DNA from: a virus
Taxonomy: Duplodnaviria; Caudoviricetes
DNA length: 31,538 bases
Virus record (IMG/VR): IMGVR_UViG_3300021354_000022
Coordinates: 1 to 31,538 of that record
Reading direction: 5' to 3' (one strand)
A program made the position numbers and the translations under genes. A model generated the notes under the pieces. That model had not been told where the DNA came from, ran no database searches, and worked only from the letters and a program-made list of their open reading frames with translations. This document shows positions 3,533-17,744 of this stretch, piece after piece; positions within the stretch are counted from its first letter, which is position 1, and each line of letters begins with the position of its first letter.

Positions 3533-5355
3533 TAGAATGTTCCGCCTGATACCCCTACAAACTTAGTAGCTGTAATGGTAGTTCCAGTAATAGCTGCGGC
3601 TGCTGTACCACCAATAGCAGGTGGACTTGACAAGTCTAAAGTACCGCCTAAAGTAAGGCTTCCTGTGGTTGTAACTGTACCACTAAGTGATATACCTGAA
3701 ACTGTGCCTGTACCGCTTACAGAAGTTACTGAGCCACTTCCCTTGCTATTAAATGTAGTCCAATCTGTGCTTGTAAGGTAGCCGTTTACGCTTCCTGTGG
3801 CGGCAGCCATACTAATTGCTGGAGTTGCACCACCACTACTTACTACAGGAGCAGTACCTGTTACTGAGGTTACCGTTCCCTGTGGATTAGCAGCAGTTGT
3901 AATGCTAGTAACACGCCCATAAGTGTCGATTGTGACTACAGGAATAAGGGTGCTAGAACCAGTTGTGCCAGCCGTTGCCACACCTGAAGCTAAGTCAATA
4001 ACAGGAGTATTACCACCAGTACTGGTTATACGACCAGTAGTTCCACTTACGCTAGTTACAGTACCACCGCTAGATGGGCTTGTATTGGTAATAGTAAAGT
4101 TAGGGTAAGTACCACTAGTTGAAATACCAGTACCAGCAGTTAAAACTACGGTTTGGTCAGGAGCAGTATTGGTTACGGTTACAGCACCAGTTGATGCACT
4201 TACGCTAATTCCTGTGCTTGCCGCTAAAGAATTAACCACATTGGTAAGTCCTGAGCCTGAACCACTAAAGGTTGTAGCTGTAATGGTTGTACCTGTTATG
4301 GCTTTAGGTGTTGTTGCACCAATAGTCATGTTATCCATTGTTCCTACATAAGTAGGGTTTATTTGGATTGAATTAACGCCTGTAGGGTTAATATGAACAT
4401 GACCAGTACCAGTAGGACTAATGTCTATTTGTGCGTTTGTGCCGTTAATGTTAGTAGAAACATTGATTGAAGCATTGTCACCACCGCCAGCACCCATGCT
4501 TATTTGAGTTGTTCCTGCGGAGTTTTTAAGCGATAAACCACCTGAGTTTGATGCTTGTACTGTAGGAGTAGTAAGGCTAGTAGAAGCACTTACAGTAGTA
4601 AATTTACCTGTGCTTGTGGTTGTAGCACCAATCGTTGTGCCATCAATAGCACCGCCTGTAATTGCCACGCTATTAGCGTTTTGCGTAGACATAGTGCCAA
4701 AGCCACTAATGTCGGTATTTGTAAGAACTACTGTTCCTGTGTAGCCATTGACGCTAGTTACAGCATCGGTATTGTCTATCTTCTGCCATGCCGACCCGTT
4801 ATATACCGCCCAATCACCAATTTGCCAATCAGAAATACCGTTGAGAGTAGTGCTGCCAGCAACATTAACAACATAGTAATAACCCTTAGTACCAACAGAA
4901 CTGGTGAGAGTAGGCGTATTAGTACTTGCATTCCATGTTCCTTGATAGCTTAAAGCTCCTAAAACTGCGGCTGGTAACTGACTAACAGGGACTGTTCCAC
5001 TACCATCTAAACTTGCTACTCCGTTAGCTACGCCTTTTGTTGCAGTTGCAACATAATCGCTAATCGTAACGCCAGACATTGAGCCACCAGTTACAACAAT
5101 GTTATTACTGTTTTGCGTGGACATTGTTCCAAGACCAGTAACTGCGGTGCTAGGAATAGTTGTACTAGCTGTCATAGCGGATACACCATTGCCATATACA
5201 TAACCAGTTAAGGTTGATGCACCAGTACCGCCATTGTCTACAGGGATTGTTCCTGTCAATACATGGTCATCATTCCAATCACTAGGGCGTACAACAGTTG
5301 TGTCTGTACCGTCAGGTATCGTTGAAACCTTTGTATGCTTGACTGTTATAGCCAT
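3532..5355 (-). CDS. Thr/Gly/Ser-rich fibre-like virion protein
   Basis: 607 aa; GTVTSV repeats, GVASLD, YQGTWNASTN module, duplicated GTMSTQN, C-terminal SGGTF. Confidence 0.75.
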   Translation of the reverse strand: MAITVKHTKVSTIPDGTDTTVVRPSDWNDDHVLTGTIPVDNGGTGASTLTGYVYGNGVSAMTASTTIPSTAVTGLGTMSTQNSNNIVVTGGSMSGVTISDYVATATKGVANGVASLDGSGTVPVSQLPAAVLGALSYQGTWNASTNTPTLTSSVGTKGYYYVVNVAGSTTLNGISDWQIGDWAVYNGSAWQKIDNTDAVTSVNGYTGTVVLTNTDISGFGTMSTQNANSVAITGGAIDGTTIGATTTSTGKFTTVSASTSLTTPTVQASNSGGLSLKNSAGTTQISMGAGGGDNASINVSTNINGTNAQIDISPTGTGHVHINPTGVNSIQINPTYVGTMDNMTIGATTPKAITGTTITATTFSGSGSGLTNVVNSLAASTGISVSASTGAVTVTNTAPDQTVVLTAGTGISTSGTYPNFTITNTSPSSGGTVTSVSGTTGRITSTGGNTPVIDLASGVATAGTTGSSTLIPVVTIDTYGRVTSITTAANPQGTVTSVTGTAPVVSSGGATPAISMAAATGSVNGYLTSTDWTTFNSKGSGSVTSVSGTGTVSGISLSGTVTTTGSLTLGGTLDLSSPPAIGGTAAAAITGTTITATKFVGVSGGTF

Positions 5356-5356
5356 T

Positions 5357-7627
5357 TTATTGGACTCCGATTATCTTGCCGTCAGCACCTCGAACTACAG
5401 TCTTAGGTCTGTTATGTTGAGCATTAATTGTGTCTACAAGGGCTGAAATTGCTTGTGCCATTTGTTCGTTTCCTTGACCAATAGCATTGGCAATAGGCTG
5501 CATAGGGTGTTCTTGTGCCCTTACATACTCTTCTTCAGTTAAATAGGCTTGCGCTCCATCTGAATCATCAGAACCAATGCGTGCTACTTCAATTTTTGCG
5601 CCATTGTTAATGTGAGCTAACATTACTTGAGTATTACGCTCAGTCATCATCTTCATTTGGGCTACTTTTAGCTCCATTTCTCTGTCAGCAGCGTTTCTTT
5701 GCTGTTCAAGTTGGAATTTAAGTTGGTTTTCTTGTGCCTGGTACTCTTGTTTAGCCTTTTCAAGCTGCATTTGACCCTGTAACTTAGCTTGCTCGACTTG
5801 AGCTTGCATCTGAATCTGTTGCATCTTCGATTGGTTGTCCATCTGCGCTTTTTGTATCTCTGGTGGCGGTGGTTTAGGCTGACCTTGCATCTGTTGTGCT
5901 TTAGTACGCATTTCATCAGCAGTTTGGTCAATAATTCCTTCCAACTGTTTACCTGCTTTGAACGCTGTTACGCCAAACTTAAGCATTTCCATAGCCATAG
6001 GTGCTAATTCAGGTTGTGCTTGAATCATAGGGACTGCTTGTTGCATAAAGCCACTCATTGCTTGCAAGAATTGCATTCTGTCTTGCTTTTCTTGCTGCTC
6101 ATCTTGGTAAATCATTGAGTCAGAGGTGACTTCTATGCGGAAATTCTTAGCTGCTTCATCTCTTAACAGCGCAATCGCTTGTGGAATGTACTGTTGGTCT
6201 TGCGGACTTAGTTGCATTGCACCAGAAATCTTCACTAGCGTGTCATCTGTAAAATGATTGCAAATAATCTGCGCTTTAATGCTTAAAAGGCTAGTAGCAA
6301 AGTCTACAACTGAGTGTTGCATTGTCTTTAAGCGACCAGCAGCGTTATTAGACTTAATAATTTGTGCGCCAAGAGTTTCATTGGGGTCAGTTTGTCCACG
6401 CTGAATGTCAGCAATACCCATTAATTCATAGATTTGACCCTTAACTTGTTCCATTGCTTGATAACAAGATTGCAAAGCGCTTGCAAAAGGAGTTATATCG
6501 ACTAAATCAATAGCGCCTTTCATACCTTGTTTTTCGGCAAATGCCATCCAGTTACTTACTGGAATCATGGTGTTGTTTTCGCCTTCAGAGAACAGTCTTT
6601 GTAGCTCGCTGGCTGATGCATCGTAAACGCCTCGTACCTTCAAAGCGTTAATCAAGCCATCAATTCTGTCACAAAGAGCGTCTAATTCTCTTGCTTGGTC
6701 TTGGTAAATGACAAAGTCAGGAATTGGCTCAAGGCTATCAGTTGTAAGGGTGCTGTATAGGGGTTTAGGACAAGGCCAAAAGTTCTCCAAGCCCAATGGG
6801 TCATCACGCTCATCCAATATCTTTCCGAGTGACTTAGAAATCCACAGTACTTTTCCTGTTTCTTTGTCCCATATTTCATATATCAGCGCCTCATATACTC
6901 CGTCATCAGACTTGTACGACTGTTTTAAATCTTCAGGCTTAGTATCAAGTGGAATCTTATAGCCTAATTCTTCGCCAAAACGCTCACAAAGAGCAGGTCT
7001 AGACATATAGACTCTACGCCATACTGCGGTTACTTCTTCCCAGGTTCTAGCAATTGTGTGTCCAAAGTCTTTCCAATGGACATAATCTACAGGGCAGCAC
7101 TCATATTCAATGCGCTCTGGATTTTCATTGACTTCGCCTTGCATTGTTTCGGCTTCGTCAGAATCTTCAGTTACCTCTAAACCATCTTCAGGTGTGTCGG
7201 TTTCATCAGCTTCACCTACAATGTGTGGCTCATAACGAACCCAACTAACGCCACGACCACCCAATAATCGGTCTAAAACGCTGTTATTCATAGCTGACTT
7301 ATAGTCGCCATAGTGTTCAATTTCAAACTCTAAGGCACGCTCAAGCATCATTGAGGCTACTCTGCCGATTGGGTCATTGTCCCTAAATCTACGGCTTACA
7401 TCAGGTCTTGGAAGTCTTGCAAAGATAGCAGGCTGAATGGTTTGGACATTTGACCAAAGAATATTAAACCGAGCATTAGGATTGCGGTCATAGCGACTGT
7501 CATCTTTATACTTCTTTACTATCCTATCAACTCTGGCTTCCCAACGCTTATATGAGCGTTCATAGCCCATAATGGTTTTGTACCAATCTTCATAAGTGTG
7601 GTCTACAGTTGCCTTGTCATTCGCCAT
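5357..7627 (-). CDS. Portal protein (P22-like)
   Basis: 756 aa directly after terL; Q-rich C-terminal coiled coil like the P22 portal barrel. Confidence 0.9.
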   Translation of the reverse strand: MANDKATVDHTYEDWYKTIMGYERSYKRWEARVDRIVKKYKDDSRYDRNPNARFNILWSNVQTIQPAIFARLPRPDVSRRFRDNDPIGRVASMMLERALEFEIEHYGDYKSAMNNSVLDRLLGGRGVSWVRYEPHIVGEADETDTPEDGLEVTEDSDEAETMQGEVNENPERIEYECCPVDYVHWKDFGHTIARTWEEVTAVWRRVYMSRPALCERFGEELGYKIPLDTKPEDLKQSYKSDDGVYEALIYEIWDKETGKVLWISKSLGKILDERDDPLGLENFWPCPKPLYSTLTTDSLEPIPDFVIYQDQARELDALCDRIDGLINALKVRGVYDASASELQRLFSEGENNTMIPVSNWMAFAEKQGMKGAIDLVDITPFASALQSCYQAMEQVKGQIYELMGIADIQRGQTDPNETLGAQIIKSNNAAGRLKTMQHSVVDFATSLLSIKAQIICNHFTDDTLVKISGAMQLSPQDQQYIPQAIALLRDEAAKNFRIEVTSDSMIYQDEQQEKQDRMQFLQAMSGFMQQAVPMIQAQPELAPMAMEMLKFGVTAFKAGKQLEGIIDQTADEMRTKAQQMQGQPKPPPPEIQKAQMDNQSKMQQIQMQAQVEQAKLQGQMQLEKAKQEYQAQENQLKFQLEQQRNAADREMELKVAQMKMMTERNTQVMLAHINNGAKIEVARIGSDDSDGAQAYLTEEEYVRAQEHPMQPIANAIGQGNEQMAQAISALVDTINAQHNRPKTVVRGADGKIIGVQ

Positions 7628-10811: not shown

Positions 10812-11177
10812 TTACTTGAGGTATTTGAGTTTGTAGATAGTAGAGTCAATCAGTTGCTGGATTTCGGCAACAATATTGATAAGTTCTTGTTTTTGCGGCA
10901 AATCTGCGTTGGCTTCTGCCACGAAATTCTTTAATGATTCTAAGTACTTGAGTGCATCTTTAGGCTGATGATAGACACTTGGAAACTCTTTAATCTGCTC
11001 ATAGCAACCCATATAAGCCTCGACATAATCATCTACAAGCTCAATGATTTCATCATAGTATTTGCCCAAAGCCTTATGCTGTGAGTAAGAATTTGTTGCC
11101 CAATGGAAGAAATGAGTATTAGTGCTGCTATGCAATAAAGTAGCGGCAAACATAGCGACATTAGGGGTTTCATTCAT
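10812..11177 (-). CDS. Ferritin/Dps-like four-helix protein (DUF5856-like)
   Basis: HFFHW...HKALGKYYD...VDDYVEAYMG...YKLKYLK. Confidence 0.8.
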   Translation of the reverse strand: MNETPNVAMFAATLLHSSTNTHFFHWATNSYSQHKALGKYYDEIIELVDDYVEAYMGCYEQIKEFPSVYHQPKDALKYLESLKNFVAEANADLPQKQELINIVAEIQQLIDSTIYKLKYLK

Positions 11178-11509: not shown

Positions 11510-12469
11510 ATGACGCAGTATTACTTGCCAGATGAAGAATGGATTGCCCTTTGGAAAGAGTGCGGTTCTGCCAAAATAATGTCCCAAAAGACAGGGATTA
11601 CAGAAAGGTCTGTATATAACCGCAGACGCTCAATAGAATCTAGGTACAAAATTGAATTACCTTCAGTTGATGACCAGCGCTTTGACCAGTTAAAGAAAAT
11701 AGCCCAGACCACAGGACATACACGCAGGGGCATGGAAATAGAAAAAGGTAAAGTCATTGTCTTTAGTGATGCTCACTTTTGGCCTGACGATACCACCACA
11801 GCATTCAAAGCCCTGTTAGAAATGATTAAAGAGCATAAGCCTACTGCCATAGTCTGTAATGGGGATGCGCTTGATGGGGCTAATCTTAGTCGTTTTCCAC
11901 GCCAGGATTGGAATAAAGTCCCAACAGTCAAAGAAGAGTTAGACGCTTGTCAGTATTACTTGGGCGAAATTGAAGCGGTAGCCAAAGGAGCTAAGTTATT
12001 TTGGCCCATTGGCAACCATGACCAAAGACTTGAAATGAGTATTATTGCCAACCTTCCATCATTTGAAGGTGTCAAAGGCACAAGTCTTAAAGACTATTTT
12101 CCTATGTGGCAGCCTTGTTGGAGCTTTTGGCTCAATGAAGATGTTTGCATAAAGCATCGTTGGAAAGGTGGTTGGACAGGTGGTCGTAACAACGCTGTCA
12201 ATAGCGGTTGCTCTATGCTTACAGGTCATACCCATGTACTGAGTGCTATACCTTTTAATGACTATAACGGCACACGCTGGGGTGTTCAGACAGGCACTTT
12301 AGCTGACCCAATGGGGCAACAGTTCAGTTATACCGAGGACACGCCTAAAGATTGGAATAGTGGCTTTGTAATGCTTTCATTTGAGCGCAGCAAAATGCTT
12401 CAACCTGAACTCATTAGAGTATGCGGTGAAGATGAGGTAGATTTTAGAGGAAAGATTCATAGAGTATGA
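11510..12469 (+). CDS. Calcineurin-like metallophosphoesterase with N-terminal HTH-like segment
   Basis: Motifs SDAH, GDALD, GNHD, KH and GHTH. Confidence 0.88.
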   Translation: MTQYYLPDEEWIALWKECGSAKIMSQKTGITERSVYNRRRSIESRYKIELPSVDDQRFDQLKKIAQTTGHTRRGMEIEKGKVIVFSDAHFWPDDTTTAFKALLEMIKEHKPTAIVCNGDALDGANLSRFPRQDWNKVPTVKEELDACQYYLGEIEAVAKGAKLFWPIGNHDQRLEMSIIANLPSFEGVKGTSLKDYFPMWQPCWSFWLNEDVCIKHRWKGGWTGGRNNAVNSGCSMLTGHTHVLSAIPFNDYNGTRWGVQTGTLADPMGQQFSYTEDTPKDWNSGFVMLSFERSKMLQPELIRVCGEDEVDFRGKIHRV

Positions 12470-12813
12470 AGCTAACTCCAGCTATTCTTAGCAATTTGTA
12501 TAGTGCTATTTATTGTATGAAACCTTTTGACAGGTGGTCTATGCCATTGCCAGAAGAAATTGAGTTTCTTATAGACAAAGACCCAAATGTAATGGGTTCA
12601 TATAGCTACGATACTGGCGAGGATATAGAACACACTATTATTATTTCGTCTGCTCGCTGTGGTCATCTAGACACGGTGATTCGAGTGCTTTGCCATGAGT
12701 GCATACATATGAGCCGTCATCGCACAAATAAATGGACTCACCATGATAAGGAGTTTCGTAAAAGAGCGCTCCGTATCTCGTCTGAATTGGGTTTTGACCC
12801 TTTAGAATTGTAG
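12466..12813 (+). CDS. SprT-like zincin metallopeptidase
   Basis: VLCHECIH (HExxH) and HDKEF; ATGA overlap with the phosphoesterase. Confidence 0.75.
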   Translation: MKLTPAILSNLYSAIYCMKPFDRWSMPLPEEIEFLIDKDPNVMGSYSYDTGEDIEHTIIISSARCGHLDTVIRVLCHECIHMSRHRTNKWTHHDKEFRKRALRISSELGFDPLEL

Positions 12814-13512: not shown

Positions 13513-13676
13513 TGTTTCCTTACCTGGTCATAAGTAGAAAACTCTAACTTTATGGTTTCTTCAGCTAAATCATGGGCTATGAGTGTAGCCTTTTCATACT
13601 GTTTTTTAAGAGTAGCGTTGTGATAACACCGTAATAACTTTTGAATACGCAGGTAGTTTTCAGAATAATCAGTCAT
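13500..13676 (-). CDS. Hypothetical protein (58 aa)
   Basis: Not in track: MTDYSENYLRIQKLLRCYHNATLKKQYEKATLIAHDLAEETIKLEFSTYDQVRKQWLT; ATGA overlap with the queD stop. Confidence 0.65.
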   Translation of the reverse strand: MTDYSENYLRIQKLLRCYHNATLKKQYEKATLIAHDLAEETIKLEFSTYDQVRKQWLT

Positions 13677-14038
13677 TCAATCTCCAAAGTGCATTTGTCG
13701 CCAGAGGCTTTTCTTTCTACAGTTACTTCACATAATCCTTTTACATCTTTGCAAAAATCAGTTATGTAAAGACATAAATTTTCTAATGTTGGTCTGCCTA
13801 AACCTTCAACATTATCTAAAAATTTGTGGTCAAGTCTAATTTTTAATGGGTCAATCACCCAAGCAAAATGCCCAAAATCTTTAACCATTCCATCTTCATT
13901 TGGTTCGCCTCTAACTGAAATGCTTGCATGGTAAGTATGCCCATGTATATTTTCTGATTGCATTTTGGTGTGTACATCCACATACCTACCTTTTAATGTA
14001 TGTGCAGCGTCAAAATAAAATGTTTGTGTAAGTTTCAA
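13673..14038 (-). CDS. queD: 6-carboxy-5,6,7,8-tetrahydropterin synthase (QueD/PTPS family)
   Basis: FDAAH...HGHTY...GMVKDF...LDHKFL...PTLENL; TTG start with GAGGGG RBS. Confidence 0.9.
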   Translation of the reverse strand: MKLTQTFYFDAAHTLKGRYVDVHTKMQSENIHGHTYHASISVRGEPNEDGMVKDFGHFAWVIDPLKIRLDHKFLDNVEGLGRPTLENLCLYITDFCKDVKGLCEVTVERKASGDKCTLEIE

Positions 14039-14772
14039 AATAACCCCTCTTGTTCAACTTGCATAAAATTCCAAGTAGATGGTGCATTATGAGCTTCAAT
14101 TCTTGACCTCATTACTTGCGCTCTAGCTTCTTTTGTTGGGGGTGGGTAATTGCCGTTTTTCCAATTTTTGTCAATTCCTACATTTCTAGCAATGTTTGTG
14201 CTGTCCGTAGAAGCAAAAGGCAATTTAGTAAATATTGCTGGGTCTAACATACGCAGACCATGAAGTTTGCATATTGGCCTACCCATATCATCGCAAATAA
14301 CACGCATTGCTTGACCCATTTTTGACCACCAGGCAGATGTTCCAACTGTAGCGTATTCACCAGAACTACCAATACATACACGCACATAATAATTGGCTAA
14401 TTGTTCCAACCTTTCTAATGATTCATGCATATGCCATACAGGAGCTCCAAACCATTTAGGTAATGGGCAATCTTCAAGCAACGCATCATTGTCAGCCTCT
14501 GTTCCATCAATGACATCAGGAATACAAGCAAAATCACAAGATGGTACTTTTTTAAGGTTTAATGCCCAATCATAATAAGCATCCCAATTAGTAACTGGTT
14601 TACCGCTTTTCCAAGCACTAAAAGCGCCATTGTCTATAGCAAAAGATTGACATACTTCAATTGCTGTGCCAATTTGGTCTGCATGAGCATAAGACACAAA
14701 GGCATGACCAGCTTGTACAGCGTAATTAGCAACTGTGGCTGGGGTTATAGGAAGCCCATGATAATGAATCAT
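14035..14772 (-). CDS. TGT-fold transglycosylase-like protein (DpdA-like)
   Basis: DNGAFS, PDVIDG, PVWH, CIGSSG, LHGL and STDST motifs of the TGT/DpdA barrel; overlaps queD. Confidence 0.7.
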   Translation of the reverse strand: MIHYHGLPITPATVANYAVQAGHAFVSYAHADQIGTAIEVCQSFAIDNGAFSAWKSGKPVTNWDAYYDWALNLKKVPSCDFACIPDVIDGTEADNDALLEDCPLPKWFGAPVWHMHESLERLEQLANYYVRVCIGSSGEYATVGTSAWWSKMGQAMRVICDDMGRPICKLHGLRMLDPAIFTKLPFASTDSTNIARNVGIDKNWKNGNYPPPTKEARAQVMRSRIEAHNAPSTWNFMQVEQEGLF

Positions 14773-15423: not shown

Positions 15424-15590
15424 CCCCATTCTCCCCTGTTACCAGCTTCATAAGCTGTATAAAAATCACGCAAAAGTTGTTCATCAAACTTGTGTTCGCT
15501 TATGTATTTACGAAACCAAATCAAACCTTTTTTGTGTCTTAAAGCACATAAATACCTTATGCCGCACTCATGCCTAAAGCCTTCATGCAT
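15378..15590 (-). CDS. Hypothetical protein
   Basis: 70 aa, RHECGIRY...GNRGEWG, in operon. Confidence 0.55.
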   Translation of the reverse strand: MHEGFRHECGIRYLCALRHKKGLIWFRKYISEHKFDEQLLRDFYTAYEAGNRGEWGCLKGILLQQQGLGI

Positions 15591-15928
15591 TTTGCTTTGA
15601 GGCTTGCATAGGTGTCATAGCCATTACCCATAATCCCCAATTCAATAGCTTTAGCTTCAATGCCTTCATTGCTAAACATCCATTCTTTAGATTCTTTTAC
15701 TTTCTTTGGCTCAATTACCAATTCATCTTCCCATCGCTCTTGGTTTAACCAGGTAGCAGGATGGGGTATAAATTCTAACTCGGTTTCTTTTGCGCTCCAG
15801 TATTGGCAATGTGTGTCAATAGCTTTTGCAGCCATAAGTTGTTGTTCATCGGTAAGTCGTTGCCAGGCTTTTCTTGCAACTGCTTTAGCAATTTTTCGTG
15901 GATATAAAGACCAGAATTCATCAAACAT
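15557..15928 (-). CDS. Replication-initiator C-terminal-domain-like protein
   Basis: FDEFWSLYPRKIAKAVARKAW...FIPHPATWLNQERWEDE. Confidence 0.75.
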   Translation of the reverse strand: MFDEFWSLYPRKIAKAVARKAWQRLTDEQQLMAAKAIDTHCQYWSAKETELEFIPHPATWLNQERWEDELVIEPKKVKESKEWMFSNEGIEAKAIELGIMGNGYDTYASLKAKCMKALGMSAA

Positions 15929-16040: not shown

Positions 16041-16348
16041 TGCAACACACGAGGACTTGGCGGTGTTGATGGGCTAGGCGGTACTGTATAGCCTGTGTTA
16101 CCAACAACGCTTTGTGTATAACCACTTGGTGTCGTGATTACGACTTGGTTAGGATATATTGTAGCAGTCTGAGTAGTAATACCCATTGGGTTTACGAACT
16201 GTGCGGTGTTGCCATTAATTTGTACAGTTCCTAAGTTATAACCACGACTGTCAGTCATTTGAACCTGTTGTGCATTAGCAGGTATGCCATAACAAAACAT
16301 AGCTGCAAATAAAACGCCTAATAAACAACTACCTATAAAATCTTTCAT
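16037..16348 (-). CDS. Exported/periplasmic protein
   Basis: Start at 16348 (RBS AAAGGGG) gives the signal peptide MKDFIGSCLLGVLFAAMFCYGIPANA, then beta-hairpin-like repeats and a Pro-rich tail. Confidence 0.7.
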   Translation of the reverse strand: MKDFIGSCLLGVLFAAMFCYGIPANAQQVQMTDSRGYNLGTVQINGNTAQFVNPMGITTQTATIYPNQVVITTPSGYTQSVVGNTGYTVPPSPSTPPSPRVLQ

Positions 16349-16392
16349 TTGAATCCCCTTTGTTAAAAACCTAGTTTCTGACTTTCTACAAG

Positions 16393-16434
16393 CTAAGTAA
16401 ATACTCCAAAACCCTAAGTTGCAAATACGCAACA
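16393..16434 (-). promoter_or_regulatory. Palindromic operator plus AGGGT-box variant
   Basis: GTTGC-AAATAC-GCAACA (16418-16434), followed on the minus strand by TTAGGGTTTTGGAGTATTTACTTAG. Confidence 0.55.
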
Positions 16435-16450
16435 TGTACACTTTTTGGCG

Positions 16451-16482
16451 TTTTTTATACATATAGGTATCAATATGTATAC
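16451..16482 (-). repeat. 32-bp inverted repeat, left copy
   Basis: Minus strand GTATACATATTGATACCTATATGTATAAAAAA, 29/32 identical to 19876-19907. Confidence 0.85.
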
Positions 16483-16514
16483 GCAATCAATACTTATAGG
16501 TACTAAAAGACATA

Positions 16515-16740
16515 GTTTGACCAAGGGTGATAGGGAACTATCAACCGACCCAATGTCTATGACATCTAGTCCTTCACTAAGATAATGGTCATTCGATGGA
16601 GAAGTTGTATCACCCAAGTCCTCTCCGTCTTGTGTAGTCGCCATTTAACGCTACGAGGCTTGCAATGGGGTTATCACCAGCCTATCTTTTCTTCCACGCC
16701 ACCGATTTAGGTGCTTAGTACGCCTGGAGTGCGGACTGCA
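16515..16740 (-). ncRNA. Candidate ~225-nt structured RNA
   Basis: GC-richer intergenic tract with at least 6 stems; G-U pairs favour the minus strand. Confidence 0.55.
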
Positions 16741-16743
16741 ATA

Positions 16744-17469
16744 TTACTCTTTTATATCTTCCTCTGCCATGTGGCAAAAAATACCGCATTGTATGTCTTG
16801 TTCTTGGGGATAATTACCAGCTTCAGGTGGCAATTCATCCAAATATACATCTTTTAAAACTGTTTGTTTCTTTTTGCGCTCAAGTTGAGCCATACGGTCA
16901 AATTGCACAGGAAAGTCTACTTTAATCTTATTCCAATAGCCTTTACCGCCTTTAACGCAACCAATACAGTTGTTGTTATGGTAGCCTAGCTTATACATAA
17001 CTGGAAGCTCTATACCAGCGTTTTGAAGCATTGCAAGGCAATCTACTTTACCAAGTCCTTTATCAATTAAAGGCGCTTTAGCATCAATATTATTGGCATC
17101 AAGAAAACGGTCATAGCGGTCTTGTTCTTCCATCGTATAGCCAAATACTTGAATATCTGTAGGTTGCTCAAATTTAAGCCTAACATCCTTTTTTAGTTTT
17201 CTAGTGCATGGGCTTGCACCTTTAATATTCATGGCTGAAGTTTCAAAACACTTATAAATTGACCTTTCATAACGGTCATTGCCCAAAATAAGTATTTTTT
17301 GACCAAACCATTTTTCGCAATCAGCAAGAAAACGCTTGTTATCAAAGTGTTCTTCAATTACTTCTGTGTACACAACAATAACTTCTTTGTCTTTAAATTG
17401 TGCTAAAGCCAACTTTGTAGCTACAGCACTAGCAGCGCCACAAGAAAACCAACAAACAACTCTAGGCAT
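16744..17469 (-). CDS. PAPS-reductase-like PP-loop (adenine nucleotide alpha-hydrolase) enzyme
   Basis: WFSCGAAS loop, PCTRKLK, GYHNNNCIGCVKGG, C-terminal CGIFC. Confidence 0.8.
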   Translation of the reverse strand: MPRVVCWFSCGAASAVATKLALAQFKDKEVIVVYTEVIEEHFDNKRFLADCEKWFGQKILILGNDRYERSIYKCFETSAMNIKGASPCTRKLKKDVRLKFEQPTDIQVFGYTMEEQDRYDRFLDANNIDAKAPLIDKGLGKVDCLAMLQNAGIELPVMYKLGYHNNNCIGCVKGGKGYWNKIKVDFPVQFDRMAQLERKKKQTVLKDVYLDELPPEAGNYPQEQDIQCGIFCHMAEEDIKE

Positions 17470-17471
17470 AA

Positions 17472-17744
17472 TTAATCTTCAATTTGTATAAAAGCGTTGC
17501 TTTTAGGCAACAATTCAGGCCATATTAAAAAGTAGTTATTTGGAAACATATCTTGGCGAGTTACCAAACCATTGCTTTCTTTTTCAATTCTTGCGCCCAA
17601 AAACATAAACCTGTCGGCTGGGATGCCACGCACACGCCAGTTGGATACGGCTGCATTGTCTACTTTGCACATTTTTGCCACTTTTGCCGTACCACCTAAC
17701 AAATCAATAATGGCGTTATCGGTAAGTTTTAATTTTGTGTCCAT
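17472..17744 (-). CDS. Cro/YdaS-like HTH regulator
   Basis: IIDLLGGTAKVAKMCKVDNAAVSNWRVRGIP...IWPEL; first gene of the leftward operon. Confidence 0.85.
   Translation of the reverse strand: MDTKLKLTDNAIIDLLGGTAKVAKMCKVDNAAVSNWRVRGIPADRFMFLGARIEKESNGLVTRQDMFPNNYFLIWPELLPKSNAFIQIED

Follow-up and report, generated by a model that had tools for sequence, protein, structure and literature searches.

The window, by which is meant the whole 31.5-kb stretch of DNA analyzed here, is a virus record that is 92% complete. Its PHROG profile matches comprise terminase, portal, tail, endolysin, Erf, SSB, exonuclease, a Cro-like gene and a fragment of a replication initiator; none of the 52 window ORFs that were profile-scanned matched an integrase, antiterminator, helicase, primase or loader. 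Neither the window nor its complete circular relative, MW202674, gave a helicase, primase, loader or polymerase match, and no par cassette or repressor was seen in either. GC skew along the window tracked the coding strand and gave no origin signal. The element described here lies on the minus strand, flanked on one side by a PAPS-reductase-like gene and on the other by a 106-aa gene that precedes the initiator fragment, in the following setting.

17472..17744, minus strand: Cro/YdaS-like HTH gene, the landmark upstream of the slot
16744..17469, minus strand: PAPS-reductase-like accessory gene, a replaceable occupant of the cro-to-element interval
16741..16746, minus strand: TAATAT, a -10-like hexamer that overlaps the stop codon upstream and precedes the first stem by 7 nt
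16511..16733, minus strand: complete structured element ('type A'), first paired base through predicted pause, as defined by homolog conservation and covariation
16511..16522, minus strand: GG-N5-CTATG, predicted elemental pause between the last T and the G, and candidate RNA 3' end
16414..16644, minus strand: 76-aa ORF overlapping the element, not a gene
16380..16510, minus strand: A+T-rich tract, candidate unwinding region, with the probable promoter of the next gene inside
15557..15928, minus strand: half-size initiator-like protein of 123 aa, matching the C-terminal part of phage replication-initiator profiles only

Elsewhere in the window, QueD-like and queuine tRNA-ribosyltransferase-like genes (13673-14772, minus strand) may form a DNA-modification module together with the PAPS-reductase-like gene. 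A metallophosphoesterase gene and a small SprT-like gene (11510-12813, plus strand) run opposite to the main strand, and the same convergent pair occurs in G156 and in MW202674-type genomes; a Dps-like 'starvation-inducible' gene (10812-11177, minus strand) lies ahead of the terminase region.

The initial annotation had proposed at this locus a multi-stem RNA of no recognized family, at the place that cII and the start of O occupy in lambdoid phages. The position is correct and became the functional clue, and Rfam 15 indeed returned no match in the window, nor any at E-values up to 10 in 16300-16900. As a single sequence, the minus strand folded at -65.4 kcal/mol, which is shuffle level (z -1.28, with 22 of 200 shuffles equally good; z -0.91 for the plus strand); the expectation that it would fold better than shuffles thus failed, but the comparative evidence from homologs outweighs this result. 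Among 80 loci retrieved via the downstream protein, 14 carry the type A element, and three pattern scans enlarged the homolog set to 222 matches in 405 loci (106 unique). An alignment of 45 diverged phage copies, with a mean column identity of 56%, was analyzed for covariation by an in-house G-test with average-product correction and a tree-based null, in place of R-scape, and the structural model consists of the parts listed below.

16693..16733, minus strand: 5' knot, in which P0 crosses P1a, with a lone pair and the P1b hairpin
16733-16731 with 16723-16721, minus strand: P0 (two-sided changes at 2/3 pairs)
16728-16725 with 16696-16693, minus strand: P1a (two-sided changes at 4/4 pairs)
16724:16718, minus strand: lone pair (two-sided changes 1/1)
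16713-16710 with 16703-16700, minus strand: P1b hairpin (two-sided changes at 3/4 pairs)
16684..16708, minus strand: PK1, P1b loop positions 16708, 16705 and 16704 with 16684-16686
16657..16682, minus strand: P2 hairpin, its loop ACC a direct repeat of the 3' CACC
16634..16654, minus strand: P3 hairpin with bulged A and AAAU loop (99.4% of cells paired; two-sided changes at 6/7 pairs)
16584..16645, minus strand: PK2, P3 loop AAUG (16645-16642) with CAUU (16587-16584)
16595..16629, minus strand: P4 hairpin, its loop with invariant GGUG(A/G) at 16614-16610
16582-16574, minus strand: P5 mini-hairpin (98.9% of cells paired); P5 and P6 together span 16547..16582
16571-16547, minus strand: P6, with a tip of variable length (97.0% of cells paired)
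16525..16546, minus strand: P7 hairpin; (Y)CACC of its 3' strand (16530-16526) can alternatively pair with the P4 loop (PK3), the two pairings being mutually exclusive

All 13 column pairs at E <=0.03 are base pairs of this model. In the 49-pair structure, which was derived from the same alignment on which it was scored, 93.5% of cells were paired, shuffles reaching 73.6% and slid controls 30-43%, and the covariation expected of a structured RNA was found as two-sided changes at 37 of the 49 pairs in the 45 homologs. It is to be noted that the invariance of P3 and of the CAUU/P6 segment is partly selected, since both served as search anchors. G.U cells far outnumbered A.C cells (223 versus 24), which identifies the minus strand as the sense strand. 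Since the structure is kept across 45 diverged homologs, its shuffle-level folding does not count against it, and the sequence comparisons identify the element as a real, conserved, structured non-coding element of no Rfam family.

All of the stems proposed by the initial annotation are present in the minus-strand sequence, and two-sided changes in the 45 homologs support CACC/GGUG (P1b), AGGCU/AGCCU (P2), GUAG-CGUU/GGCG-CUAC (P3), GGAGAGG/CUUCUCC (P4) and GACUAGAUGUC/GACAUUGGGUC (P6), while UGAUAG/CUAUCA (P7), which varies in length and stands outside the counted structure, is backed by per-sequence folding. The closing stem UGACCA/UGGUCA did not survive: in the 42 homologs that could be parsed there (5 of 47 could not), three of its pairs can form in 12, 12 and 5, and a fourth in 32; its 5' strand pairs with the P3 loop instead. 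Of the two loops said to contain GGUGAUA, the P4-loop copy is conserved (GGUG in 47/47), but the other belongs to the variable upper stem of P2. In P4 itself 71.7% of cells were paired, the alignment being out of register there. The 76-aa ORF, which had been kept in view as a possible conserved protein, has no PHROG match and is open for at least 60 codons in only 2 of 47 homologs, and was rejected as a gene.

Four pseudoknot-type pairings, absent from the original list of stems, complete the structure. The covarying positions of PK1 are 39 A-U/5 G-C and 28 G-C/16 C-G (44/44 parsed), and the neighboring P2 loop reads CACC, AACC or ACC in 45 of 47 homologs. PK2, with 98.9% pairing and a two-sided change at only 1 of 4 pairs, has the weaker support, because it is nearly invariant and both of its strands were search anchors. 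The pair that flanks PK3 is 35 A-U/12 G-C and forms in 47/47 homologs, its Y being paired also within P7 in 42 of 46 folds. With two mutually exclusive partners for (Y)CACC, the element may act as a switch, or the loop may pair to a second copy of that sequence, such as the displaced DNA strand.

By blastn, type A had no match in GenBank phages or in 72,556 plasmids, and its homolog in MW202674, a complete circular GenBank podovirus, was recovered by the covariance model only (5125-5395). Two annotated hypothetical ORFs of MW202674.1 (5130-5279 and 5279-5377, minus strand) overlie this copy and are unlikely to be genes. When bacterial genomes were scanned by pattern, 52 and 21 chance matches came up and no full homolog; two actinobacterial near-matches were rejected as they fell within coding sequence, the covariance model found nothing in 151 sampled bacterial genomes of one order, and no prophage relative that would name a host was found. 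Contigs from four RNA-library runs (three studies) overlap part of the element, one at 100% identity; two also span flanking genes and one continues upstream. These runs were picked by similarity, and such contigs cannot tell level, strand, ends or DNA carry-over. The literature searched gave no account of the element, nor of RNA origins that can replace one another in lambdoid-type phages, with the proviso that the candidate lists of PMC5737381 and PMC10690425 may hold pieces of the motif; the motif pattern had no match in the four literature data files that were scanned.

Both ends of the element bear signals suggestive of transcription. From its sequence and placement, the TAATAT hexamer is likely the element's own promoter; a consensus promoter scan did not pick it up. 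Among 44 anchored homologs, a TAnnnT hexamer lies 4-8 nt upstream in 12 and a U-tract in 22, while 10 have neither. The 3' end of type A, CACCCTWGG-N5-CTATG, agrees with the elemental pause consensus GGnnnnnntgYR (PMC9974457). In 47 non-redundant homologs, this signature is conserved at G-10 (98%), T-3 (87%), T-1 (94%) and G+1 (79%), whereas G-11 was part of the search anchor, which matched 92/92. Beyond the pause, A is found at +5 to +8 in 57-83% of type A copies, that of the window having no A-run, and mean G+C is 0.33 downstream, the motif itself having 0.48 and the loci 0.41. A conserved CAAC(W)WAGGG box (16400-16430 in the window, and in homologs) precedes a weak downstream promoter-like site in all element types, and is possibly a binding site for a regulator or initiator. 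On the plus strand, one promoter-like site for an antisense RNA was seen, with 2.3 expected by chance; this candidate (16559-16586) was set aside as apparently unconserved, its -35 falling within the variable P6 tip.

The slot between cro and the initiator can be filled by other elements. Type B is Betaproteobacteria-1 of Rfam (RF02932), found in 8 of the 20 slot loci scanned, on the same strand and with TTGG and T-3/T-1 in common at the 3' end; it lacks the +1 purine, with T in 86%, which weakens the common pause signal, and gave no blastn match in GenBank phages. The literature searched names no function for it. The two types are distinct, in that the RF02932 model matched neither the window nor the type A loci L032, L064 and L068, and the type A model matched none of the type B loci. 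RF02932 covers only the first 120 of ~200 nt: in type B loci, including L057, L004 and L007, conservation extends ~80 nt past the 120-position model, up to the TTGG end. A third element of ~190 nt, type C, which has no Rfam match, occupies the cro-to-short-initiator interval of L013, L496, L509 and L519 and ends in TTGG-N5-CTATG; in L519/L520, 10 nt separate its end from the start codon of the initiator. The fourth, type D, is a conserved element of ~250 nt (L624:6046-6296 of genome G164, and 22 loci of the second-clade search described below) that ends in AGG-N5-CT(A/T)TG. The 3' ends of types C and D resemble that of type A, and both types exhibit apparent compensatory changes as judged by eye only. 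Each genome carries one copy of its element.

The gene downstream of the slot encodes no complete protein initiator, as the window matches only C-terminal profile halves (phrog_270 positions 179-260 of 383 and phrog_9327 positions 174-243 of 276); a canonical relative has a 264-aa initiator and a loader. The short initiator, compared with solved DnaT and DnaD domains as a candidate relative of these, had no PDB sequence match and no Foldseek match, and in a fold search the best score (VIA Z 5.5) was to unrelated helical proteins. BLAST of the short initiator against a full one returned a 23-residue tail match only (E 0.013). Residues 73-121 (window 15560-15710) appear as a separate small helical domain, with weak SAP/Rho-N-like scores (Z <4), that is common to the tails of several full-length initiators.

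Occupancy of the slot was then compared with the type of initiator in two overlapping sets of loci and in a second clade. The cro-anchored set started from 80 loci, from which 20 were removed as too short (<1.5 kb downstream) and to which two whole genomes were added, making 62. In 51 of them, one of types A, B or C accompanies a half-size initiator and there is no repeat array; 10 are without an element and encode a full DUF1376 initiator that contains a tandem 7-bp array; the remaining one has a half-size initiator and the fourth element. The element-less group consists of nine loci and the complete genome G161, with initiators of 225-255 aa, DUF1376 at the N-terminus and the array in the linker. 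The window, MW202674, G164 and the 51 element-bearing loci all lack the array. From its position, it would be the iteron set bound by DUF1376 and the equivalent of the lambda origin, which is located inside O (PMC7157519). The short-initiator-anchored set, which overlaps the first, likewise began with 80 loci, of which 68 reach cro; every one of these 68 has exactly one element in sense orientation (45 B, 15 A and 8 C). Since G164 has a short initiator but none of types A-C, a fourth element was predicted there, and was indeed found, ending in GG-N5-CTATG. A search from the G164 initiator yielded 80 loci of a second clade, 17 of which do not reach cro; in 62 of the other 63, exactly one element is present (27 A, 22 D including the seed, 9 B and 4 C), and none has DUF1376 or the 7-bp array. 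The sole exception, L691, has a G7-TA-G7 run in place of types A-D.

On a cro+erf tree of 59 rows, the type of element changes at least 18 times, and the slot is never empty beside a short initiator, so that the link of element and initiator is more than the shared descent of one cassette. The presence of an element changes 4 times on this tree, and the co-occurrence rests on these changes, with element and initiator linked at a distance of ~0.1-1.4 kb; the three independent starred tree pairs are all concordant but too few for significance (p 0.25). Type A also extends to other settings. In G156-G158, helicase and primase genes follow it, with a ParB-like gene in between in one case, and neither DUF1376 nor HTH_36 is found in G156, G157, G160 or G164. 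Evidence against an origin role comes from G159 and G160, where type A lies away from replication genes and ahead of terminase genes, and from the one bacterial copy of Betaproteobacteria-1 found (chromosomal, in G125, 1 of 151 genomes), with no recognized replication gene among the 13 neighbors scanned. In G160, a 149-aa O-like gene with an Arc-like N-terminus lies 1.8 kb from the element on the opposite strand; its product may bind DNA and counts against a clean element/initiator rule. Overall, the element accompanies initiators that lack the N-terminal half and the repeat array, and is missing where these are found.

As its candidate function, we favor, with somewhat better than even confidence, that the element is an RNA-based replication origin that replaces the origin-binding domain of the initiator together with the repeat array; by analogy to known systems, it likely works like such an origin. 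Taking as established the fold, the single element per slot, its tracking of the initiator type and the conserved 3' signature, we infer all mechanistic steps beyond the fold and co-occurrence as follows. Host RNA polymerase would transcribe the element, either from its own promoter or by read-through of an upstream hairpin, and would pause at GG-N5-CTATG (16512). The folded RNA would keep its 3' end hybridized to the template as an R-loop, with GGUG(A/G) of the P4 loop pairing either to (Y)CACC in the RNA, thereby opening P7, or to the same sequence on the displaced DNA strand. Next, in the manner of ColE1, a primer would be produced and elongated by RNase H and Pol I; the A+T-rich tract would open, and the fork would be loaded by the half-size initiator or, in the other clades, by a helicase/primase of the phage. 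For priming of the ColE1 kind in particular, also argued by analogy, our confidence falls just short of even.

The resemblance to ColE1 RNA II lies in a structured transcript that ends at a GG...CTATG site followed by A-rich DNA, and in the lack of an origin-binding initiator, with R-loop priming presumed for the element. When the ColE1 sequence was scored with the weight matrix of type A 3' ends, GGCGGAGCCTATGG, which we take to lie at the ColE1 origin, ranked first of 13,264 positions, in a post hoc comparison that allowed a 5- or 6-base spacer, the ColE1 spacer being one base longer. Unlike RNA II, the element is ~220 nt rather than ~550, has no likeness to it in sequence or fold beyond the 3' box, and comes with no conserved antisense RNA I or its promoter and no Rop. 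It also has no G-stretch (the window copy lacks any G-run >=5), for which the CACC repeat and the GGUG loop are the proposed substitute; moreover, the element-bearing phages retain a half-size initiator, and no plasmid match was found. By sequence, the element is a member neither of any Rfam family nor of the ColE1 family. In ColE1 itself, the transcript forms an R-loop, RNase H cuts it and Pol I extends it (PMC6317783, PMC7157519, PMC8683028).

RNA-based origins as such are already known, from ColE1, MRB plasmids and mycobacterial prophages, although this element is uncatalogued. A precedent for the interchange of RepA and RNA is described for mycobacterial prophages (PMC7157519): in cluster A, as here, a protein initiator and a non-coding RNA are alternatives in related phages, and the ParB-like gene that adjoins the element in one type A clade is a further parallel. 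In their actinobacterial hosts, the cluster A origins support maintenance of the prophage as a plasmid, next to parABS (PMC7157519); the phage collection gave no blastn match to the element. Structured RNAs of 223-349 nt are likewise found in Rep-less replication regions, namely those of the MRB replicons and of three plasmid motifs, PAGEV, ARRPOF and GEBRO, for which an RNA-based origin has been suggested (PMC5737381, PMC3035462). Unlike the element, these are all plasmid-borne, and the element has no Rfam match; the MRB replicons have a 68-nt antisense RNA (PMC3035462).

The same co-occurrence data would fit an origin element functioning in the form of folded single-stranded DNA, or one whose RNA is a scaffold for recruiting the short initiator or the host primosome and is not itself the primer. 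Covariation cannot distinguish RNA from single-stranded DNA (PMC5737381), and GNRA/UNCG loops, being no commoner on the sense strand (12 versus 11 of 46), did not separate the two. However, there are transcription signals at both ends, namely a promoter- or terminator-like 5' boundary in 34 of 44 homologs and a pause-consensus 3' boundary, and a scaffold with a specific protein partner is disfavored because near-identical short initiators accompany different types of element; indeed, the short initiator of L446 is 100% identical to that of the window, yet stands beside a type B element. We regard this reading as unlikely, and infer that the element acts as RNA rather than as single-stranded DNA.

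Similarly unlikely is a cis-acting antiterminator like put of HK022, in which the nascent RNA would bind the paused polymerase and allow read-through of a long downstream unit; put antiterminates independently of other factors, through the beta' zinc-binding domain. Here too a nascent structured RNA would lie behind the cro region with a pause-like signal after a hairpin, and putR occupies a comparable place, ~270 nt downstream of PR (PMC9378689). PF06530 is absent in 5/5 genomes; type A lies upstream of terminase genes in G159 and G160; and in MW202674 a 32-kb, mostly same-strand unit follows the element, its 56 annotated genes including no integrase, repressor, N, Q, helicase, primase or polymerase. 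The put model thus accounts for the position and for the pause, but leaves the dependence on initiator type unexplained, because element-less relatives have the same kind of downstream genes and G161, which is one of them, is also without a Q match; presence follows the type of initiator and not a regulator. Furthermore, a promoter-like sequence comes after the element, and in L107 a convergent gene lies within 3 nt. Finally, put is ~70 nt with two stems and occurs in two copies per genome, after both early promoters (PMC9378689), as compared with a single copy of 220 nt for the element.

A trans-acting phage RNA with no origin role, such as a decoy, an anti-defence, superinfection-control or packaging RNA, ranks just after put and is likewise improbable. 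It would suit the element's own boundaries, its varied gene contexts and the fact that its slot-mate Betaproteobacteria-1 is typed as an sRNA by Rfam. A trans-acting role would, however, leave unexplained why the element is absent in 10/10 full-initiator loci and present in 62/63 and 68/68 short-initiator loci; moreover, the conserved loops are consumed by internal pairings, and the longest match to the element elsewhere in the genome is 13 nt. Lastly, a self-cleaving or otherwise catalytic RNA, which would cleave the early transcript or form its 3' end by itself, is compatible with the origin model and suggested by the dense tertiary pairing and invariant unpaired bases, but is very improbable, in that no Rfam ribozyme matched even at E 10 and the four unrelated folds have in common the slot and the 3' signature rather than a catalytic core.

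Returning to the RNA-based origin, a broader scenario is tentative and, in our judgment, somewhat less probable than ColE1-like priming: a P22-like podovirus lineage would have swapped its lambda-style initiator-plus-iteron origin for a plug-in RNA origin, for which at least four unrelated folds and a G-run element would serve as interchangeable primers, with one pause signal in common and an R-loop anchored by pairing between an RNA loop and the displaced DNA. The natural swap of the element against half of an initiator provides a functional handle that is rare for orphan structured RNAs. If the origin model is true, the element would represent a compact class of RNA origin, less than half the size of ColE1 RNA II, with a direct functional test for the Rfam orphan Betaproteobacteria-1 and two further new RNA families, and might yield minimal replicons for hosts that have no vectors.

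The filler of L691 (~1450-1640) is a fifth kind, a pyrimidine-rich tract with the G7-TA-G7 run. This run, seen at a single locus, is like the G-runs that anchor priming R-loops (PMC6317783); its pattern was found in no other viral contig, and a similar G-run is present in L703. The tract of L691 lies behind a leader hairpin that is also met elsewhere: an optional leader of ~145 nt, absent from the window, occupies the cro-to-element interval in L519, L520, L012, L067 and L691. It comprises a promoter-like site and a T-arm-like hairpin, the loop of which is complementary to the bulge of a long hairpin ending in a U-tract, and in this arrangement it looks like an attenuator.
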